Part shown: positions 11,648-64,000 of the stretch, piece after piece
Position numbering within the stretch: position 1 is the stretch's first letter
Layout of the letters: each line of letters starts with the position of its first letter
Source: a virus
Virus record (IMG/VR): IMGVR_UViG_3300010397_000045
Span: 9,000-72,999 of that record
DNA length: 64,000 nucleotides
Direction: 5' to 3' (one strand)
The notes under the pieces: generated by a model
What the model saw: the letters and a program-made list of their open reading frames with translations, nothing else
What the model was told of the DNA's origin: nothing
Databases searched by the model: none
Made by a program: the position numbers and the translations under genes

Positions 11648-11784
11648 ACGTCGACAAAGTGTTGTATTGGCTGTTGTTGATCCTAGCCGCCGTTTACATT
11701 GGTATGATTATTTGAACGCCGTGAAGCCCCGCTACCGCTTCATTGCGAGATATAACATGTGGCTGCTTGCGCTGAGCGCTACTG

Positions 11785-53351: not shown

Positions 53352-53636
53352 TTAACAGATCGAGTTGACAAGCTTGGCCCGCACGGCCTCAGGTGGCATA
53401 CCCCGCGCGAGGTCGTTCTGCACTGTCGCAACAGCGTTCTCGAGTTGGGCAGCCCGCCTAGCCAGTGATATGTTAGCCCGTACCAGTTGTGCGCAGCGCT
53501 TGTCGACGCACGTGATGTCAGCTTGATATTGTGCCCCTAAGATTTCCACCATTTTACGCATCCGCCGGTAGTGGAGATACGTTATGAGGAAGCAGAACAG
53601 GAACGCTGTGATAAAACCAGCTGTGAAAGTATTCAT
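53352..53636 (-). CDS. Hypothetical membrane-anchored coiled-coil protein
   Basis: Start ATG 53636 (MNTFTAGF), 4-bp overlap with the thyX stop. Confidence 0.55.
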   Translation of the reverse strand: MNTFTAGFITAFLFCFLITYLHYRRMRKMVEILGAQYQADITCVDKRCAQLVRANISLARRAAQLENAVATVQNDLARGMPPEAVRAKLVNSIC

Positions 53637-54436
53637 ATGCGTCTGCTCCTGAATTCCAGCCACTCTTTGAACAGCTCCCGCTCGTGTTGGAACAACCCGT
53701 AGGTGCGGGGGAAATGCTCCTCTACCAACACCCCCACCGCACGCGCGCACTCGCGTGTCTCGTGCATCACCCCTTCCTCGTCTCGTAGCGTGAGGAATGC
53801 CAACCAGTTGCGAAGGTTGGCCGAGGCGCGCATCCTCGAGTAGTGGCCTACCGGCATCCCCATGCGGGCCAGCTCTTTGGGGATTCCCAACTTCAATCCC
53901 AGTTGGTAGAACTCCTCGTCGTGCTCGTACTTGTGCATGAGGGCATCGTGCCATGCCACAATCTGCTCGTCTGTCGGCGGCGTCTGGTTCTTGACCAACC
54001 CCTGCAACTGCTTGTTGTGCGTCGCGGCGGCCTCGTGCGAGCGGCGCCGGATGAGTTCAAAGTCCGGCAGGTAGTATTCCTCGGGCAGTGGCGCATAGCG
54101 GGCTGACATCTCGTTGTAGCTCTGCGTGCGGTGCCGATGCCACTCACGGAACACCGCAATTGGCGCCTGGACCTCGACGATCATGCCGGCGAACTCAAAA
54201 GGGCCCGCGTGCTTCGGGTGACTGTTGAACAGGGTTTTCAATAACAGCTCATCCAGGGTCCACCCACGGAACGAGCCCTGCGTCGATTGACGTGCGGCCT
54301 CGATGATCCCGCATTCGTAATCAGCTTTAGAAAAGGTGGCGGGATCGCTGACCCATTCCGAGATACCGGCCTTACCGGTACCCCACGACTCAATGAACTT
54401 GACGTAACCTTTCCCATCCAGAAGTTGGATATTCAT
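53633..54436 (-). CDS. thyX: FAD-dependent thymidylate synthase
   Basis: RHRTQSYNEMSARY signature, HAGPFE, KELAR and NLRNWLAFLTLR. Confidence 0.95.
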   Translation of the reverse strand: MNIQLLDGKGYVKFIESWGTGKAGISEWVSDPATFSKADYECGIIEAARQSTQGSFRGWTLDELLLKTLFNSHPKHAGPFEFAGMIVEVQAPIAVFREWHRHRTQSYNEMSARYAPLPEEYYLPDFELIRRRSHEAAATHNKQLQGLVKNQTPPTDEQIVAWHDALMHKYEHDEEFYQLGLKLGIPKELARMGMPVGHYSRMRASANLRNWLAFLTLRDEEGVMHETRECARAVGVLVEEHFPRTYGLFQHERELFKEWLEFRSRRI

Positions 54437-56285: not shown

Positions 56286-56359
56286 GACGCTCTCCAGATA
56301 AGAAAAACGCCCCCGGCGGGCGTTTGTTGGCCTGCCGGGGGTTTCGGGCTGTATCAGCC

Positions 56360-57328
56360 TCAATGCTTCTTGATCAGACCTCGCTTCACCATGTCGTTGT
56401 AGTACCACGACACGTAACCGGTGTTCTTGATGTTGTTATCGGGAAACTTTTTCACAGCCGCTTCGAAGATCTCTTTGGTCTCCTTGCCGGCTTTGTACAT
56501 TTCCCGGATGAACCTGGCGGGGGTACCCTCGCGGCCTAACCCATCACCCGTGTCTTGGACCTTTTGACGGCCCTTCGGCGCTGCTTTGGCCTCGACCTTC
56601 TTACCATTGGTCTTCTTACCATTGGTCTTTCCAGCCGGCTTCGCGGCTGCCTTCACAGCTGTTGCCTTTGCGGCAGGTTTCGCCTTGACAGCCTTTTTCC
56701 CCTTCGTCGTTGAACTCGTCTGTACTTCCATCTCTGCTTCCTTTGGTATAGCCGGTGGTTGGTAATGCCCGTTCGATACCTGCCCGTCCGGCTTATGCCA
56801 GGTAGGATCAAACTGTTCGAGATATCCCCGTACTATCAATTCTTTCAAGGGGCGGTGCAGGTTGGTGCGTTTATCGTCGAACTGAACCATCAACGCATCC
56901 ACCTCTACATCTGTCAGGCCGCGCAGACTCTTGCCCGACTCGATTATTGTATACTCCTCCACCCCTTTGATGTCACCCGCTGCCTTGCGTGCCGCCATCT
57001 CCGTTGCGTGCTTGGAGACGACCCGCGCGCTTTTGTTGGTTTGATCAATCAACGCAACCCATTGCATACGACCACCTTTTTGCCTGATGATTTTCTCCGT
57101 GGGTACAAGCATTGCCGCGGAGATACGCTCCAGATAATCACGAATCAATTGACGGTCCACATTCCGTCGCTCAACCTCCTCCTTGGTCAGTTTCCTGGCT
57201 GGTTCAACATGAAAGTTAAACAGGTTCCGACTCTCCAGGCGATGGGCAGTGATCTTGAAGTTACCACGCTGCAGCGCCTCTTTGGTCATTTGATCGGGCT
57301 TCCAAGCCCAATCGGCCAGAAGTTTCAT
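56360..57328 (-). CDS. Early protein with a histone H1-like Lys/Ala linker and a C-terminal LGREGTPARFIRE domain
   Basis: KKAVKAKPAAKATAVKAAAKP tract; C-terminus similar to 58821..59054. Start uncertain. Confidence 0.7.
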   Translation of the reverse strand: MKLLADWAWKPDQMTKEALQRGNFKITAHRLESRNLFNFHVEPARKLTKEEVERRNVDRQLIRDYLERISAAMLVPTEKIIRQKGGRMQWVALIDQTNKSARVVSKHATEMAARKAAGDIKGVEEYTIIESGKSLRGLTDVEVDALMVQFDDKRTNLHRPLKELIVRGYLEQFDPTWHKPDGQVSNGHYQPPAIPKEAEMEVQTSSTTKGKKAVKAKPAAKATAVKAAAKPAGKTNGKKTNGKKVEAKAAPKGRQKVQDTGDGLGREGTPARFIREMYKAGKETKEIFEAAVKKFPDNNIKNTGYVSWYYNDMVKRGLIKKH

Positions 57329-57765: not shown

Positions 57766-57993
57766 CTACTCCGTGGCCGCCGCTGCGCCCTCCACCCGCG
57801 GCCCCTTGGTTTTCGTGCTCTCGTACACGCTGAGACCGAAGGAGATGCTGGCGTGTTTGTCCGGCAGCCGCTGGTTGCCTTCCGTCGACGCTACGATGAT
57901 GCTCTTACCGGAGCCGGAAGGACCAAAACGCTTCGACAGGTCCACGGTGATGACCAGCTTGGTACCAGTGATCTTCGTCTCGATGTTGACCAT
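57766..57993 (-). CDS. Conserved small protein
   Basis: LVITVDLSKRFGPSGSGKSIIVASTEGN motif; GAGG RBS; first gene downstream of hammerhead 1. Confidence 0.75.
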   Translation of the reverse strand: MVNIETKITGTKLVITVDLSKRFGPSGSGKSIIVASTEGNQRLPDKHASISFGLSVYESTKTKGPRVEGAAAATE

Positions 57994-58018
57994 GAATGCA
58001 AAACCTCGTGTAAGTTGA

Positions 58019-58069
58019 CCCAGACGGCTTGGCGCCGTTTCGCCCGGATTTCACGGGCTCGTCAGTGGG
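58019..58069 (-). ncRNA. Type I hammerhead ribozyme, copy 1
   Basis: CCCA CUGACGA GCCCG-UGAAAUC-CGGGC GAAA CGGC-GCCAA-GCCG UC/UGGG; predicted cut between 58023 and 58022. Confidence 0.9.
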
Positions 58070-58071
58070 AG

Positions 58072-58716
58072 TTATTTAGAGGGTGACCGGGCCCGTTGAC
58101 CGTCCCAGCGTGCCACCGCGGCGACCCTCGCAGCCTTCCAGCAATCCATGCAACACTCCTCCGTGATCCACGCCTCGGTGCACACACCGTTGGCATCGCG
58201 TGGGCGATCCTTCGCCTTCTTGCCACAGCCGCCAAGGCAGACTCGTGAGTCCGCCAATGGGTTGAAAAGCATTGCACGATCAAAAGCGGCCATGGCTGCA
58301 GCACGGAAGATCTCCCGGTCGTATTCCGGATTCTCCCCGGTAGTCAAACGGGTAACAGTTCCATCCCGCTCCTCCAATTGCAGTTCCAGAGTGCAACCTG
58401 GATCGACCAACTTCACGGTCAATACCGTATAGTGGCGCTCACTGGTTGGATCAAATTCAGGTCTTGGCATGGTCGCCAGCGTCGTCAGCGTGAGATGGCC
58501 GCCGTTGAGCTTGCGGCCATTCATCGTACCGTGATCGTAACAACCAACAATGCCGCGCTGAGGATGCACGGCAACGTAATGGCCGCCTCCTGCGGCCCAG
58601 CGTGTTATCATGCGCACTCTGCGGCAACCTAACTTCTTTGCATCAGCCTGCCACTTGGCAAGGCTGCGATAGTGTTTGACTGCGCCGCTGTCAGCATTGA
58701 GAGACAATGTGTTCAC
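58072..58716 (-). CDS. Hypothetical early protein (214 aa) between hammerheads 2 and 1
   Basis: ORF track; C-terminal Cys cluster; stop codon 2 nt before hammerhead 1. Confidence 0.65.
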   Translation of the reverse strand: MNTLSLNADSGAVKHYRSLAKWQADAKKLGCRRVRMITRWAAGGGHYVAVHPQRGIVGCYDHGTMNGRKLNGGHLTLTTLATMPRPEFDPTSERHYTVLTVKLVDPGCTLELQLEERDGTVTRLTTGENPEYDREIFRAAAMAAFDRAMLFNPLADSRVCLGGCGKKAKDRPRDANGVCTEAWITEECCMDCWKAARVAAVARWDGQRARSPSK

Positions 58717-58743
58717 GATCCCTGACTCCAGTTTTTGCCTTTT

Positions 58744-58820
58744 CCCAGACGGGTGGCGGCATCGTGCGACCGATGGTGCCGCGCCCCGTTTCGCCCGGAT
58801 CTCACGGGCTCGTCAGTGGG
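58744..58820 (-). ncRNA. Type I hammerhead ribozyme, copy 2 (extended stem III)
   Basis: CCCA CUGACGA GCCCG-UGAGAUC-CGGGC GAAA CGGG-[GCGGCA..AUCG..CGAU-GCCGC]-CCCG UC/UGGG; predicted cut between 58748 and 58747. Confidence 0.9.
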
Positions 58821-59054
58821 TTACTCCGCCGCCTGTAGCAACCCTTTCTTGCGTAGCTGTGTTCCATACCATGAGACGTAGGCAGGCGTTTTGATCTTGT
58901 TCCTTGGAAACCGCTTTTTGGCGGCTTTGAAGATCTCACCGGTACCCTTACCGGCAAGGTACTGCTCGCGGATGAAACGCGCAGGCGTACCCTCGCGACC
59001 CAGCTCGACAACCTTCGTACTCTTCGCCTTGCGGCGGTTCTTTGCCTTCGCCAT
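58821..59054 (-). CDS. Small basic protein (77 aa) with the LGREGTPARFIRE domain, between hammerheads 3 and 2
   Basis: GAGGTG RBS; TAA abuts hammerhead 2. Confidence 0.8.
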   Translation of the reverse strand: MAKAKNRRKAKSTKVVELGREGTPARFIREQYLAGKGTGEIFKAAKKRFPRNKIKTPAYVSWYGTQLRKKGLLQAAE

Positions 59055-59085
59055 AAATCACCTCTTTACGTTTTGTTTGATCTCA

Positions 59086-59136
59086 CCCAGACGGCTCGGC
59101 GCCGTTTCGCCCGGATTTCACGGGCTCCTCAGTGGG
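59086..59136 (-). ncRNA. Type I hammerhead ribozyme, copy 3
   Basis: CCCA CUGAGGA GCCCG-UGAAAUC-CGGGC GAAA CGGC-GCCGA-GCCG UC/UGGG; predicted cut between 59090 and 59089. Confidence 0.9.
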
Positions 59137-59304
59137 TTACACCTTTAGATATTTCGCCTCCAGCTTATCGAGGTTCTTCGCAGCGGCTTCACGCTGTTCA
59201 GGCGTCATGAAATTGAACCCCCGCGAACGCTCCACCGCGTTGTACGCTTTGCGGCTGACGCGTTTCAAAACCCCTTTGGGCCAGAAAACATTCTTGTGGG
59301 TCAT
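59137..59304 (-). CDS. Small hypothetical early protein
   Basis: Start ATG 59304 with GAGGAG RBS; TAA abuts hammerhead 3. Confidence 0.65.
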   Translation of the reverse strand: MTHKNVFWPKGVLKRVSRKAYNAVERSRGFNFMTPEQREAAAKNLDKLEAKYLKV

Positions 59305-59837: not shown

Positions 59838-59866
59838 ATCATCTCACATTTTCAATGGAAAGTAAA
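59838..59866 (-). promoter_or_regulatory. Early promoter TTTACT-N17-GATGAT (extended TG) with an upstream A-tract
   Basis: Near-duplicate of 60269-60308: TGCAAAAA(A)TAGTTT(T)ACTTTYCATTGA...TGTGAGA. Confidence 0.7.
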
Positions 59867-59878
59867 CTATTTTTTGCA

Positions 59879-60118
59879 TCAATCTTTGCGAAGACGGACG
59901 GACATTCGCCCCATTGTAGAAAATTCAAAGTCAAGGGTGACCTCTTCTACCACTGCGATCTGGATCGCAGAAGTCCTCTCCTGTGCTTCAAGTCGCTCTA
60001 TACGGCGCAAAGCGTTGACTAGCGCAGCCTTCAATTCCTGGTCTGTCGCTTCGCGATCTTCGAGCTGATCTGCTGCATCGCCGGGTTCACCGCGATAAAG
60101 CTCATTGAATCTACTCAT
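59879..60118 (-). CDS. Hypothetical protein
   Basis: ORF track; GGAG RBS. Confidence 0.6.
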   Translation of the reverse strand: MSRFNELYRGEPGDAADQLEDREATDQELKAALVNALRRIERLEAQERTSAIQIAVVEEVTLDFEFSTMGRMSVRLRKD

Positions 60119-60268: not shown

Positions 60269-60297
60269 AGTCTCTCACAGAATCAATGAAAAGTAAA
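60269..60297 (-). promoter_or_regulatory. Early promoter TTTACT-N17-GAGACT (extended TG)
   Basis: Paralog of the 59838-59866 promoter. Confidence 0.7.
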
Positions 60298-60353
60298 ACT
60301 ATTTTTGCAGTTTTTCAGGCACCTCCTAAGCTGCTGATTCTTAAAGAATTATT

Positions 60354-60878
60354 TTAAGCCCATTTTAGCCAGAATCGACCCTCTTTCGACCCCCCTATAA
60401 AGAGGTCCCGCGCCGCAGCCCCATGGGCGTACTCCTCCAGGAAGATTACTCGGCTACAGGATGTACAACACAACAGCTTGGCACAATGGACGCAGGGGCT
60501 GTGGGTCACATAACAGGTGTGAATCGCTTGCGGGTCCCGGCATTGGAGCAAGGCATTCTGCTCGGCGTGAATAGCTTCGCAAAGGTCCAACCCCTCTCCA
60601 GGTTTCGAAGCCGACCCTTTACAGGCGTTGAGGTATTCAAAGTGCGTCTTGATGCCACGCGGTACCGCACCCGAAGCGTGCACCGGTAGGTTGCCGTCGA
60701 AGACGGTCAGCCTCTCATTACAGTGAGGCCGCCCGGGAGCCACCCCGTTGTAACCGGTCGAAAGCACGTGCCCACGAACATCTACCAATACACAACCCAC
60801 AGCCCGTCTGAGACATGTAGATTGCTCAGCGATATCGCAACATACCTTGAGCCAGGTAGTCTCCTTTGCAGGTCTCAT
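60354..60878 (-). CDS. dCMP deaminase
   Basis: STCLRRAVG, STGYNG, HAEQNA and SPCVHCAK zinc motifs. Confidence 0.93.
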   Translation of the reverse strand: MRPAKETTWLKVCCDIAEQSTCLRRAVGCVLVDVRGHVLSTGYNGVAPGRPHCNERLTVFDGNLPVHASGAVPRGIKTHFEYLNACKGSASKPGEGLDLCEAIHAEQNALLQCRDPQAIHTCYVTHSPCVHCAKLLCCTSCSRVIFLEEYAHGAAARDLFIGGSKEGRFWLKWA

Positions 60879-61813
60879 GGCACGATCCCTGTTATAAGCG
60901 GTAGCAACTGAGAGTGCACCACGATTGGATCTTTCCAGGTCCGGTAACCCAACATAGAAGCAAATGCCTGCCAGCCGTCCGGAGCCGAGGCCACAGCCCC
61001 CTGGCGCAGCGCGTATTCAGTAGCGGCGATACCTTCCGACTTGATATTAGGTGGCCCTGGAATATCGACCTCGACGTAACACTGATTGTCGATATTCAGC
61101 ACCCAACCAGCCTGGTCTGCGTCACGCTCGTAGATATGAGACGACCCTATGACCAGTGTCAGTGGGCCGGCCTCTACCTGAAGTTCAGCCGCCACGGCCC
61201 GCTGGAGCATCGCAAAGTTGAAGATGTCGTAGGGTATTCCGAGCCACGCGTCCGACGATCGCATCGACACGGTGGCCTCGAGCCGTCCTTGGCGGAACAT
61301 GTATTGCATCGTGAGAGTGCAGGGAACATCCTTGGTTGTTGTATACCCAACATCCTCACTTCGATTTTCGAGTGAATCGTAATCACGCTGTACGATATTA
61401 TATTCAGGTCTCCACACCCCGATGATCGCCTGACGTGTATCGGCGTCGTTGCGGATACGCTCGACGACCCCACCAATCTGACTACGCCACCGCGGGCCAT
61501 AGGCGCCATAGAACGTCTGCCCATCGTCGGAGTACTTCACGATGTTGGAGTTGTAGTGCCGTATCATCGCAACGTCCGAGCGCCCACAGAAAACCCACAG
61601 AAACTCGGCGAACATGAACGGGTAGTTGAGACGCCGATCCGGCAACCAGGCGGCGCACTTTGTCGTGTCAGTCAGAACATACACCTGGTTACGCAATTCG
61701 CGGGTCGCCATGCCGCGCGGGCCCACGCACTCGCCATCTTCCGAGCGCAGTACGTTGTCGAGCACGGCGGCGTACAACCGGCTCGCTGTCGACGCTTTGA
61801 TTATCCTGTGCAT
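60875..61813 (-). CDS. Thymidylate-synthase-fold enzyme, probably a dCMP hydroxymethylase/methylase
   Basis: YSDDG...GAYGPR, DTRQA, catalytic DVPCT and MRSSDAWLGIPYDIF with Asp where dUMP-specific ThyA has Asn; SSHIY. Confidence 0.8.
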   Translation of the reverse strand: MHRIIKASTASRLYAAVLDNVLRSEDGECVGPRGMATRELRNQVYVLTDTTKCAAWLPDRRLNYPFMFAEFLWVFCGRSDVAMIRHYNSNIVKYSDDGQTFYGAYGPRWRSQIGGVVERIRNDADTRQAIIGVWRPEYNIVQRDYDSLENRSEDVGYTTTKDVPCTLTMQYMFRQGRLEATVSMRSSDAWLGIPYDIFNFAMLQRAVAAELQVEAGPLTLVIGSSHIYERDADQAGWVLNIDNQCYVEVDIPGPPNIKSEGIAATEYALRQGAVASAPDGWQAFASMLGYRTWKDPIVVHSQLLPLITGIVP

Positions 61814-62352
61814 AGTGAGTCCCCCGCGGTCTCTTCGATCATCTCGATGAACGTCCCGCGGTGCGCCTCACGTGTCCAGTCGTAGTGGTACGTCGGCAGT
61901 GGCACCGAGGCGTCCGACAACACGTCGCAGAAACCGTCATACACCTGGCGCAGCTTCGACTCGCTCGGCAGGTACTCCAGGTTCCGGCGCGACGCCCAGG
62001 CTTTGGCGCACTCATCAAACGGCGGTTGACACACCACTAGGATCGCACCTGCGCGACGGGCGAGGTTCTCGAGTACCTTGCGATCGTGCGCCGGTATGCG
62101 GTCCTCACTCCGCATCAAAGGTCCGTAAATCGACTCACTGATCCAACAGCGATCGATCAACAGCAGGGTGTTGCGCTCATAGCGAATGAAATCACTCGCG
62201 TAGTGGTGAGTAACAACCTTCTCTCCCAGGTACGGGCCGTGGTTGGAACGGCGCACACTCTGTCCACGGGCCGCAGCGCGGCGCTCCCAGGCGTCAGCCA
62301 GAGTGGTCTTACCGGAACCATCGCAACCTTCGAATATCACTATGTTCATCAT
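61801..62352 (-). CDS. dNMP kinase (thymidylate-kinase-like P-loop)
   Basis: IFEGCDGSGKTT and IDRCWISESIYG. Confidence 0.88.
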   Translation of the reverse strand: MMNIVIFEGCDGSGKTTLADAWERRAAARGQSVRRSNHGPYLGEKVVTHHYASDFIRYERNTLLLIDRCWISESIYGPLMRSEDRIPAHDRKVLENLARRAGAILVVCQPPFDECAKAWASRRNLEYLPSESKLRQVYDGFCDVLSDASVPLPTYHYDWTREAHRGTFIEMIEETAGDSLCTG

Positions 62353-62362
62353 CAGTCTCCTC

Positions 62363-62947
62363 TTACATTTTCAAAAAGCTGTCCCGCCGATGCTCGATCA
62401 CACCGACGACGTCGGGCTCGCACCAACCTTCCGGCTTTACGACTTCACCGGCTGTGTAGTTACGCGGCTTCACGGGATCACCCTCGCGCCACGGACGTTT
62501 CTGCATGTTGGCCCGGTTAACCTCGTTCAATACCTCATCGAACGGCACACCCATGTAGTGTGCAGTACCGGCAGCGATCCAGGCGAGGTCCACCAGCGCG
62601 TCGGCCGCCTTCACGATGTCCCCTTCCGTATGCGCCTCGACGAACTCGCGCAACTCTTCGAACAGGAAGTTTACCCGGTACTTGAAGTCCGCGTAACGCA
62701 TGATATGTGGGCGCATGTCATCGACATGTGGTAACCCCATCTTCTTGTGGAACTCACCCACCATCTCGAACATCGTTCGCGGTAATACGACATCGGTCGA
62801 TAACGCCACACCGCGCCGCTTCAATTCAAATACCAGATCTCCCATGCTTAACCCTTCCAGCTGACACCTCGTCGACTTTGTTTCCAGTTCTGGCGATGGG
62901 TTTCCGTTCGGACCATCTGGACAATACACCATGTTAATCTCCTTCAC
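62363..62947 (-). CDS. MazG-like nucleoside triphosphate pyrophosphohydrolase (DR2231/PRA-PH-like)
   Basis: VGEFH...EELREF...ADALVDL...EVNRANMQK...VVKPEGW. Confidence 0.88.
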   Translation of the reverse strand: MKEINMVYCPDGPNGNPSPELETKSTRCQLEGLSMGDLVFELKRRGVALSTDVVLPRTMFEMVGEFHKKMGLPHVDDMRPHIMRYADFKYRVNFLFEELREFVEAHTEGDIVKAADALVDLAWIAAGTAHYMGVPFDEVLNEVNRANMQKRPWREGDPVKPRNYTAGEVVKPEGWCEPDVVGVIEHRRDSFLKM

Positions 62948-64000
62948 TCTTTACCTGCCAATTTACGTTTGTTCCAGGAGACGTCCGCGGACGTCGCCTT
63001 GCTATTTGGAAACTCAGCCCGGATCGTCTCGAGTATCCGCGCCGTGGGATCACCCGCCAGCAGGAGCTCCCGTATACGCTTGCCCACCCCTGGCCGCGAG
63101 GTCTCCTTGAAGGTTTTTACCACAGCCGGCGGCTCCACCCGCAAAGGCACCTTGGACTTCGGCCGCAAATCAACATCTCGTGTTTCGATCTTATCACGCA
63201 GAATTGTGACCTCCTCGGGTACCATCACTAGCGGTTTCTTGTTGCGACGGATGCCTATTGCCACAATGCGTGCTAGATACTTTGCTACGGGTGGGAGCAC
63301 GGCACGGCCAATCTGCGCGAATTGAGAGGAGGGGCCGCCGGTGAATGTGTACCCTTCCGGGTACCCGCAGAGTGCCGCCTGCTCTTCGGTCGAGAGAAAC
63401 CGGTGCTTGGTAGGATGCACGAACTCGCCTCCACCCAACACAACCGGGGCGTAGCGGTCCATTCTTAAACGTGATACCAGGTAACCTGGGCGGCCCTTGA
63501 TACGGCCGTCTTCCACCACCGGGTCCGGATTTCTACGATCGAACACCTCGCGGACCTTTTCACCGGGTTTAACCAACTTCAAAATACCCTTGAATGGCCG
63601 TCCTTTGGTTTCAAGGATGGTCTCAGTCTTGAACTTACGGCCTTTCCAGGCGCGCTCGACGGTAGGTTCATAGTTGAGATGAGTCGGCTGCCAATCAAGC
63701 TGCACCTTGCTCAGCACCAGGAAGAACCGCAAGCGCTTCTGTGGTACCCCGTGCTCGAGCGCATTGCACAGGATGTAGGTTGGTTTGTACCCCATTGCCA
63801 TGCCTTGGCGGGCCAGGTCGTCGATCATCTGCCGGCCATCAGAGTAGACGCCCCGCACGGATTCACATGCCCATACGGTGGGTTTCAACCGCTTGATAAG
63901 ATCGAAGCAGTTGACCCAGTGAACCATACGGGGGTCCTGTCGCCAGGCGCCACCCGCTTTGCCACCAGCCCGGGACCAAGGGGCGCAGGGAGGGTTGCAA
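62944..64000 (-). CDS. DNA cytosine-5 methyltransferase, 5' end truncated by the window edge
   Basis: Frame open to the edge: CNPPCAPWS (motif IV), ESV (VI variant), GVPQKRLRFF (VIII), RFLSTEEQAALCGYP (IX), QIGRAV (X variant). Confidence 0.88.
   Translation of the reverse strand, partial: CNPPCAPWSRAGGKAGGAWRQDPRMVHWVNCFDLIKRLKPTVWACESVRGVYSDGRQMIDDLARQGMAMGYKPTYILCNALEHGVPQKRLRFFLVLSKVQLDWQPTHLNYEPTVERAWKGRKFKTETILETKGRPFKGILKLVKPGEKVREVFDRRNPDPVVEDGRIKGRPGYLVSRLRMDRYAPVVLGGGEFVHPTKHRFLSTEEQAALCGYPEGYTFTGGPSSQFAQIGRAVLPPVAKYLARIVAIGIRRNKKPLVMVPEEVTILRDKIETRDVDLRPKSKVPLRVEPPAVVKTFKETSRPGVGKRIRELLLAGDPTARILETIRAEFPNSKATSADVSWNKRKLAGKE

Follow-up and report, generated by a model that had tools for sequence, protein, structure and literature searches.

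Three putative type I hammerhead ribozymes in a leftward operon of an uncultured myovirus, with a proposed role in cutting its transcript into single-gene mRNAs

Three Hammerhead Motifs at Gene Boundaries

The window analyzed here, a 64,000-nucleotide (nt) stretch of the IMG/VR record IMGVR_UViG_3300010397_000045 (complete length 72,999 base pairs, bp), carries three hammerhead motifs on its minus strand, referred to as HH1, HH2, and HH3 from right to left. We propose that they are functional type I hammerhead ribozymes within one leftward operon, whose transcript they would cut into single-gene mRNAs, and we give this reading a probability of about 0.8. Protein-free cutting of the operon is the best-supported reading, in which we infer cleavage itself as well as its effects on mRNA stability and translation. 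That the three copies are genuine hammerhead ribozymes is strongly supported by sequence and structure criteria.

The copies are 51-77 nt in size and follow a common order of elements: CCCA, CUGA(G/C)GA, a stem II of GCCCG-UGA(A/G)AUC-CGGGC, GAAA, a stem III hairpin, U-C, and UGGG. HH1 (59136-59086, minus strand) was recognized as a type I hammerhead by its sequence, by a covariance model referred to as R1 (see below), and by its minimum free energy (MFE) fold. It consists of CCCA at 59136-59133, the core segment CUGAGGA, stem II strands GCCCG/CGGGC around the loop UGAAAUC, a stem III of CGGC-GCCGA-GCCG, and UGGG at 59089-59086, with an optional fifth stem I pair between A59137 and U59085. HH2 (58820-58744, minus strand), recognized by the same three means, has CCCA at 58820-58817, the core segment CUGACGA, the loop UGAGAUC, and UGGG at 58747-58744; its stem III is closed by CGGG/CCCG and measures 39 nt vs. 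13 nt, and the additional 26 nt are paired in the MFE structure as an extended hairpin. HH3 (58069-58019, minus strand), identified as type I by its sequence, by R1, and by its membership in the direct-repeat family D1, has CCCA at 58069-58066, the core segment CUGACGA, the loop UGAAAUC, a stem III of CGGC-GCCAA-GCCG, and UGGG at 58022-58019. Cleavage is predicted to follow C17, i.e., C59090 in HH1, C58748 in HH2, and C58023 in HH3, with new 5' ends at 59089, 58747, and 58022, the same ends as had been named in the preliminary description of this DNA.

Judged by the criteria of Perreault et al. (2011), the core (C3 U4 G5 A6 N7 G8 A9, G12 A13 A14, A15.1-U16.1, and H17) is complete in 3/3 copies, and the core-adjacent pairs 1.1-2.1, 10.1-11.1, and 15.1-16.1 are U-A, G-C, and A-U in all of them. 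Stem I is open, stems II and III are closed by loops, and the strands come in the order required of type I. When every copy is folded in isolation, the three-way hammerhead junction is both the MFE and the centroid structure. Among the copies, N7 is G, C, and C in HH1, HH2, and HH3 respectively, and HH2 has G-C instead of C-G as its fourth stem III pair, a compensatory change. The stem I strands CCCA/UGGG are identical in all three, and HH1 and HH3 are direct repeats of 96% identity lying 1,067 bp apart. The preliminary description had claimed three coding-strand copies with a full core and stems I-III, whose differences (N7, the stem III compensation, and the 26-nt paired insertion) are those that the fold tolerates; sequence, MFE folding, and R1 bear out the former claim, and sequence and fold the latter.

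The position of the copies relative to genes is tight. The stop codons TAA 59139-59137, TAA 58823-58821, and TAA 58074-58072 lie 0, 0, and 2 nt before the CCCA of HH1, HH2, and HH3 respectively, and the next starts (ATG 59054, GTG 58716, and ATG 57993) follow 35, 31, and 29 nt past the predicted cuts, in agreement with the earlier statements that each copy stands 0-2 nt after a stop and is cut about 30-35 nt before the next start. The ribozymes are spaced 751 and 316 nt from start to start, with one open reading frame (ORF) per interval.

A 32-nt pattern comprising the core and stem II has three matches in the window and none in 100 shuffles, and the hammerhead copies constitute the top direct-repeat family (D1) of the region. 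The covariance model R1 was built from six hammerheads of equal length from other viral contigs, none of them from the window, with the structure given by hand; an equal-length set was chosen because MAFFT set gaps wrongly inside stem III. On the window, with filters off, R1 scores HH1 at 62.1 bits (E 3.5e-19), HH3 at 61.6 bits (E ~1e-19), and HH2 at 39.3 bits (E 3.7e-11), while the next-best match has 9.4 bits (E 1.3). The complete record scanned with R1 yields the same three sites alone. Two loose CUGAnGA...CGAAA matches, at 11782 and 21643 of the window, are not matched by R1 and were taken as chance.

Related Hammerheads in Other Viral Contigs

A pattern in which the core and stem II alone were fixed found 51 viral stretches in IMG/VR. 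Under a strict parse, 59/65 sites are complete hammerheads that differ in stems I and III and represent 42 different sequences, the three of the window included; the six failures comprise two chance matches and four sites that appear by eye to be hammerheads in which stem III has 2 bp or one position is mismatched. Scanned over the 51 loci plus the window (533 kb), R1 gives 153 matches at E<=0.01, many of them with other stem II sequences.

The resulting family alignment has 150 rows, 103 of them distinct. Among the distinct rows, 96.2% of the paired cells are standard pairs, and both partners vary in 13/15 base pairs. Covariation scores 0.537 vs. 0.114 in shuffles (0/500 reach it) and drops to at most 0.046 if the partner columns are shifted by 1-3 positions. 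All three helices covary in the family, and 11 core nucleotides are fixed. The alignment was fitted to the R1 structure, which favors pairing, and the strict parse, which uses no model, gives the same compensation.

The family also bears on the length of stem I, which is 5 bp in 53/92 distinct copies and 4 bp in 23/92. The short stem I of the window copies (4-5 bp) had raised a concern earlier; as a mark of oddity this concern was unfounded, as 5 bp is the mode of the class. In DNA of ~58% GC, an A immediately follows stem I on its 3' side in 78% of copies, and a loop II pattern of Y-GNRA-K-N is found in the window copies and in 32/92 distinct family copies. Both features would fit a stem I-stem II docking module, the kind of tertiary contact that lets hammerheads cleave fast at physiological Mg2+. 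A covarying pseudoknot was not identified, and pairing between loop II and the downstream Shine-Dalgarno (SD) region was considered by eye.

The motif is present in bacterial and archaeal genome assemblies as well, where 22/61 sites (58 contig matches) fold as type I. These matches come from many phyla, including archaeal metagenome-assembled genomes, and give no clue to a host. Four bacterial genome contigs (L094, L097, L115, and L072) have a stem II and loop of GCCCG-UGCAAKU-CGGGC in sites that fail the type I parse and look by eye like hammerheads of another permutation.

Placement of the Ribozymes Relative to Genes

Placement was counted over 97 distinct valid sites, 83 of which are preceded by an open frame of 60 codons or more (longest-frame rule). 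Six rows lacking an aligned C3, U16.1, or H17 were excluded, HH2 with its incomplete row among them, as were rows whose core departs from the consensus or whose stem I is below 3 bp. At 44/83 sites the upstream stop is found -1 to +3 nt from stem I, and at 26/83 it is the UGA of the core CUGA itself (e.g., L008:2774-2840 and L034:7805-7863), so that 70/83 stops fall at the ribozyme edge or on the core UGA and 13/83 further off. On the other side, the next SD-preceded start follows the cut at a median of 34 nt (interquartile range 27-40), based on the 83/97 sites with such a start within 150 nt. These regularities across the family suggest that the placement of the ribozymes is under selection.

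In one lineage (L009:5565-5627, L012:1910-1972, L020:3732-3793, and relatives; six sites counted), the 3' strand of stem I is GGAG and doubles as the SD for the following gene, 10-13 nt ahead of its ATG. Cleavage there would expose the SD at the extreme 5' end of the new RNA.

Array statistics were taken from 16 loci picked as representatives of 52 sources. The arrays contain 2-12 copies, always on one strand per locus and in every case on the coding strand, with a median spacing of 631 nt and 49/58 spacings of at most 1,200 nt. Examples are a 12-copy array within ~8 kb (L034:5229-13468) and one of eight copies (L018:5202-11951), usually with one small gene between neighbors.

Arrays of this kind could also be explained by selection at the DNA level, or by selfish spread, of hammerheads that are active as RNA: as linker repeats of ~50 nt, they would mark the borders of gene cassettes and promote their exchange or spread by recombination, and RNA cleavage would be tolerated or secondary. 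The near-identical direct repeats HH1 and HH3 are what one would expect of such linkers, as are the absence of any family match for the flanked genes, which are orphans, and the close bracketing of single small genes in arrays elsewhere. Perreault et al. also note that hammerhead-flanked genes vary in identity (PMC3088659). What makes this explanation unlikely is that selection evidently acts on the RNA fold, with compensating stems and a fixed core, that copies within a lineage diverge strongly in stems II and III and would be poor substrates for homologous recombination, and that all arrays lie on the coding strand.

Copies within a lineage are more alike in stem I than elsewhere: its proximal 4 nt are identical in 91/198 within-lineage pairs (46%), compared with 43/198 (22%) for stem III and 9% for stem II, and some lineages (L018, L026, L038, and the window) have one stem I common to all copies. 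Common descent or a constraint on stem I could account for this homogeneity. It would also favor a re-ligation of excised RNAs, either by the reverse hammerhead reaction or by a host RtcB-type ligase, into circular or spliced phage RNAs. The shared CCCA/UGGG would let the 5' end of one cut pair with the next ribozyme in a nicked hammerhead, circular mRNAs would be exonuclease-proof, and the stop codon at the ribozyme edge would set where ribosomes leave the circle. We consider such re-ligation highly improbable: stem I is not homogeneous in lineages L034, L005, and L008, common descent can explain the homogeneity where it exists, a helix of 4 bp is a weak clamp for end joining, and Perreault et al. 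report, as data not shown, that spliced or circular products of such arrays were sought and none found (PMC3088659).

Proposed Processing of the Transcript and Points Against It

In the reading that we favor, each ribozyme would fold once its 3' stem I strand has been transcribed. The order of strands in type I would keep the stop codon and the whole or nearly whole ribozyme on the upstream fragment, which would end in two stable GC-rich hairpins and a 2',3'-cyclic phosphate. The downstream fragment would begin with a 5'-OH and four or five nucleotides of the former stem I, within a leader of 29-35 nt that has its own SD; in our folds, these leaders are predicted to be unstructured. The genes of 77 and 214 amino acids (aa) between the ribozymes would be released as RNAs of 342 and 725 nt, with one gene each, and would be decoupled from their neighbors in stability and translation. 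By what is generally known of bacterial RNA decay, ends of these kinds may slow 3' exonucleases and evade 5'-end-dependent decay.

Several points weigh against this proposal. Rfam 15 at its gathering thresholds gives no match in the window; the preliminary description had named a scan with the Rfam hammerhead models as a check, and none of them reaches its gathering score. Under permissive settings, RF00008 (Hammerhead_3) scores 18-23 bits vs. a threshold of 48.5, with alignments that cover only the core and stem II and in the wrong circular permutation, and RF00163 (Hammerhead_1) finds HH3 only, at 21.6 bits vs. a gathering score of 34. Folded in isolation, the copies have modest z-scores (-1.4 to -1.7), and, once the downstream leader is added, the MFE structure of HH2 and of HH3 changes to a competing one in which the 5' half of the ribozyme base-pairs with the downstream SD region. 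A ribosome that terminates 0-2 nt ahead of stem I would occupy the ribozyme and unfold it. As to whether relatives have hammerheads at corresponding junctions, searches of viral contigs with the 214-aa protein, with the 334-aa protein encoded further along the operon, and with an alignment of the 77-aa protein found no relative. Finally, the purpose of bacterial and phage hammerheads is still called unresolved in a 2019 review (PMC6765202).

As for Rfam, RF00163 aligns HH3 over its full length (model positions 1-45) and in the right topology. Since a gathering threshold belongs to the curated model and does not define the class, we assign the window copies to the hammerhead class, while they are not annotatable with Rfam. 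The missed thresholds, together with the short stem I, might instead be taken to indicate inactive look-alikes, i.e., a repeated intergenic hairpin, terminator, or protein-binding site with a chance resemblance to a hammerhead, and in the assays of Perreault et al. 4/18 candidates that conformed to the consensus were inactive (PMC3088659). Such a resemblance is scarcely credible in view of the shuffles, none of which contained any match, the E-values of ~1e-19 from the independent model R1, and an invariant core with three covarying stems over more than 100 distinct copies. Likewise, the hairpins are not followed by a T run, and no terminator was called at the ribozyme sites.

The competing folds of HH2 and HH3 have ensemble frequencies of ~1-2% and z-scores near 0, i.e., no statistical support. 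In the leader-included optimum of HH2 (58687-58826, minus strand), CC.CUGAC pairs with GUCAGGG of the next gene's SD region, and that of HH3 (57964-58075, minus strand) resembles it. As a terminating ribosome would cover the ribozyme, processing as we propose it requires that cleavage occur between ribosome passages.

The same ribosome could be given a regulatory part: a terminating or queued ribosome would block folding, so that cutting would report translation of the upstream ORF, or Mg2+, and would release and activate the downstream cistron. This conditional scheme gains from the stop codons within 3 nt of stem I or on the core UGA at most family sites, from the six sites at which stem I and SD coincide, and from the pairing of HH2 and HH3 with the downstream SD in the competing folds just described; regulated cleavage is also raised for phage hammerheads by Perreault et al. 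(PMC3088659). We nevertheless regard it as improbable. Tight spacing may be plain genome compaction, the core UGA serves as the stop in 26/70 adjacent sites, about one third, which is the frame-chance expectation if ORFs run maximally, the alternative folds have no statistical support, and no ligand-binding or sensor element is evident. Protein-free processing into single-gene mRNAs stays our preferred reading.

Gene Context

The record is that of a myovirus, with genes for portal, protease, major head, sheath, tape measure, and baseplate proteins on the plus strand at ~10.6-53 kb. The hammerheads lie on a leftward arm that encodes a C5 methyltransferase, MazG, a kinase, two thymidylate-synthase-like proteins, and a dCMP deaminase, with a primase further on. 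Because this leftward arm is non-structural and the hammerheads lie among its nucleotide-metabolism genes, an "early or middle" operon is plausible. The pyrimidine genes occupy 53633-54436 and 60354-63927 (minus strand) and comprise two thymidylate-synthase-like genes, a dCMP deaminase, a thymidylate-kinase-like gene, MazG, and a C5 cytosine methyltransferase, a set typical of phages that replace or modify a DNA pyrimidine.

Motif searches found an AT-rich, promoter-like motif of ~38 nt (GCAAAAA-TAGTTT-ACTTT-CATTGA-n3-TGTGAGA) on the minus strand at 60273-60310 and 59842-59879, in both cases in an intergenic gap upstream of a string of genes. It is probably a phage promoter or operator. The second copy stands ~33 nt upstream of GTG 59809, just before the ribozyme-bearing gene string, and may mark where the hammerhead-bearing transcription unit begins. 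A candidate end is a terminator-like GC hairpin followed by a T run (56305-56325, minus strand) just past the 334-aa ORF. A terminator search found none between the ribozymes and no T run after the hammerhead hairpins, from which we infer co-transcription of the flanked genes; an ATGA overlap and short intergenic gaps are further signs of an operon. HH1-HH3 would thus lie in one leftward operon from ~59.85 kb to the terminator at 56.3 kb.

Directly upstream of HH1 is a 55-aa ORF (59137-59304, minus strand; stop TAA 59139-59137), whose ATG overlaps the TGA of the preceding ORF as ATGA (59304-59301); a longer 68-aa reading of it has no Pfam or PHROG match. Downstream of HH3, the 75-aa ORF (57766-57993, minus strand) starts 29 nt past the predicted cut. 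Neither of these neighbors has a family match in Pfam or PHROGs.

Between HH1 and HH2 is the 77-aa ORF (58821-59054, minus strand), which encodes a protein with a Lys-rich N-terminus. This protein is 58% identical (E 4e-24) to the C-terminal domain of the 334-aa ORF in the same operon (domain at 56363-56581, minus strand), with which it has the motif LGREGTPARFIRE...YVSWY in common, and it has one homologue of 67% identity on another contig of ~72.7 kb. The 334-aa ORF also contains an exact 15-nt tandem repeat (56597-56626) that produces a repeated KTNGK in a Lys/Ala-rich linker. The 214-aa ORF between HH2 and HH3 (58072-58716, minus strand) encodes a protein with a Cys-rich C-terminus, for which neither a family nor relatives were found in family libraries, GenBank phages, or viral contigs. 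Pfam, PHROGs, and a protein atlas suggest no function for the 77-aa and 214-aa proteins.

Megablast and tblastn searches of GenBank phages found no close relatives of the virus. In metagenome contigs, the exact HH1-type pattern has no match, and the alignment of the 77-aa domain finds one locus of 1,441 bp, in which R1 detects no hammerhead.

Comparison with Known Systems

The RNase III sites of T7 early mRNA and RiboJ insulators offer a functional analogy, as an intercistronic cut leaves a 3' hairpin on the upstream RNA and a defined leader on each cistron. The T7 sites depend on a host protein enzyme that leaves 5'-phosphate ends and RiboJ is engineered, whereas self-cleavage by a hammerhead would leave a 5'-OH.

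Among curated RNA families, Hammerhead_1 and Hammerhead_3 (Rfam clan CL00010) share the catalytic core and the three-helix junction with the window copies, and the consensus of RF00008 has a UGAAAU-type loop II like theirs. The window copies differ from RF00163 and RF00008 as curated in falling below the gathering thresholds and, for RF00008, in the permutation of the alignments. This type I subclass, common in uncultured phage genomes and forming arrays of up to 12 copies, is missed by Rfam at curated thresholds, and ribozyme-punctuated phage operons are therefore probably under-annotated.

Two other sets of hammerheads have a comparable context. In Desulfovibrio vulgaris, three hammerheads near phage-like genes self-cleave in cells according to cyPhyRNA-seq (PMC8782182). 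The phage context is like that of the window, and cleavage is seen in cellular RNA by its 2',3'-cyclic phosphate and 5'-OH ends, but those hammerheads are of type II and occupy three separate loci, unlike the type I array in one operon described here. The HHphage of the haloviruses HF1 and HF2 lies in the early region of a lytic virus, 13 nt upstream of a start codon, and a 5' end has been mapped close to its cleavage site (PMC3088659); in contrast to the window, it is present in a single copy, has a variant core that needs high salt, and belongs to viruses of an archaeal host.

The closest precedent is found in prophages, where several hammerheads often flank single genes or short gene groups (Perreault et al., 2011; PMC3088659). 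In that paper, these clusters are taken to imply long phage transcripts that are processed to operon- or gene-length mRNAs. Cleavage accompanies in vitro transcription of the triple arrays from Agrobacterium tumefaciens, Azorhizobium caulinodans, and Clostridium scindens, and the A. tumefaciens array also cleaves in E. coli. Ribozyme-punctuated phage genes are therefore not new, having been in print since 2011. The preliminary description, which spoke of isolated phage examples, understated this literature and overrated the novelty of the finding, as clusters flanking single prophage genes had by then been described and tested. We found no later study of phage hammerhead arrays and no paper that links hammerheads to stop-codon placement in prophages, most subscription journals being outside the coverage of the search. 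The words "stop codon" do not occur in PMC3088659, and a rule of stop adjacency is not stated there.

Three aspects of our analysis go beyond the routine: such hammerheads escape Rfam, their arrays are abundant and long in uncultured phages, and they follow a stop-codon rule; such a tight positional rule may help explain why phages use intergenic ribozymes. For the window itself, the three sites provide concrete, testable RNA ends for an operon of orphan genes.

The window differs from the arrays of Perreault et al. in that it belongs to an uncultured 73-kb myovirus, has other flanked genes, and has cuts that are predicted. As in the clustered hammerheads of that study, several copies on one strand bracket single genes, in what appears to be one transcription unit. 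The window shares with these arrays closely spaced hammerheads on phage DNA, the small and variable nature of the flanked genes, and the same proposed role, namely the conversion of a long transcript into single-gene mRNAs.

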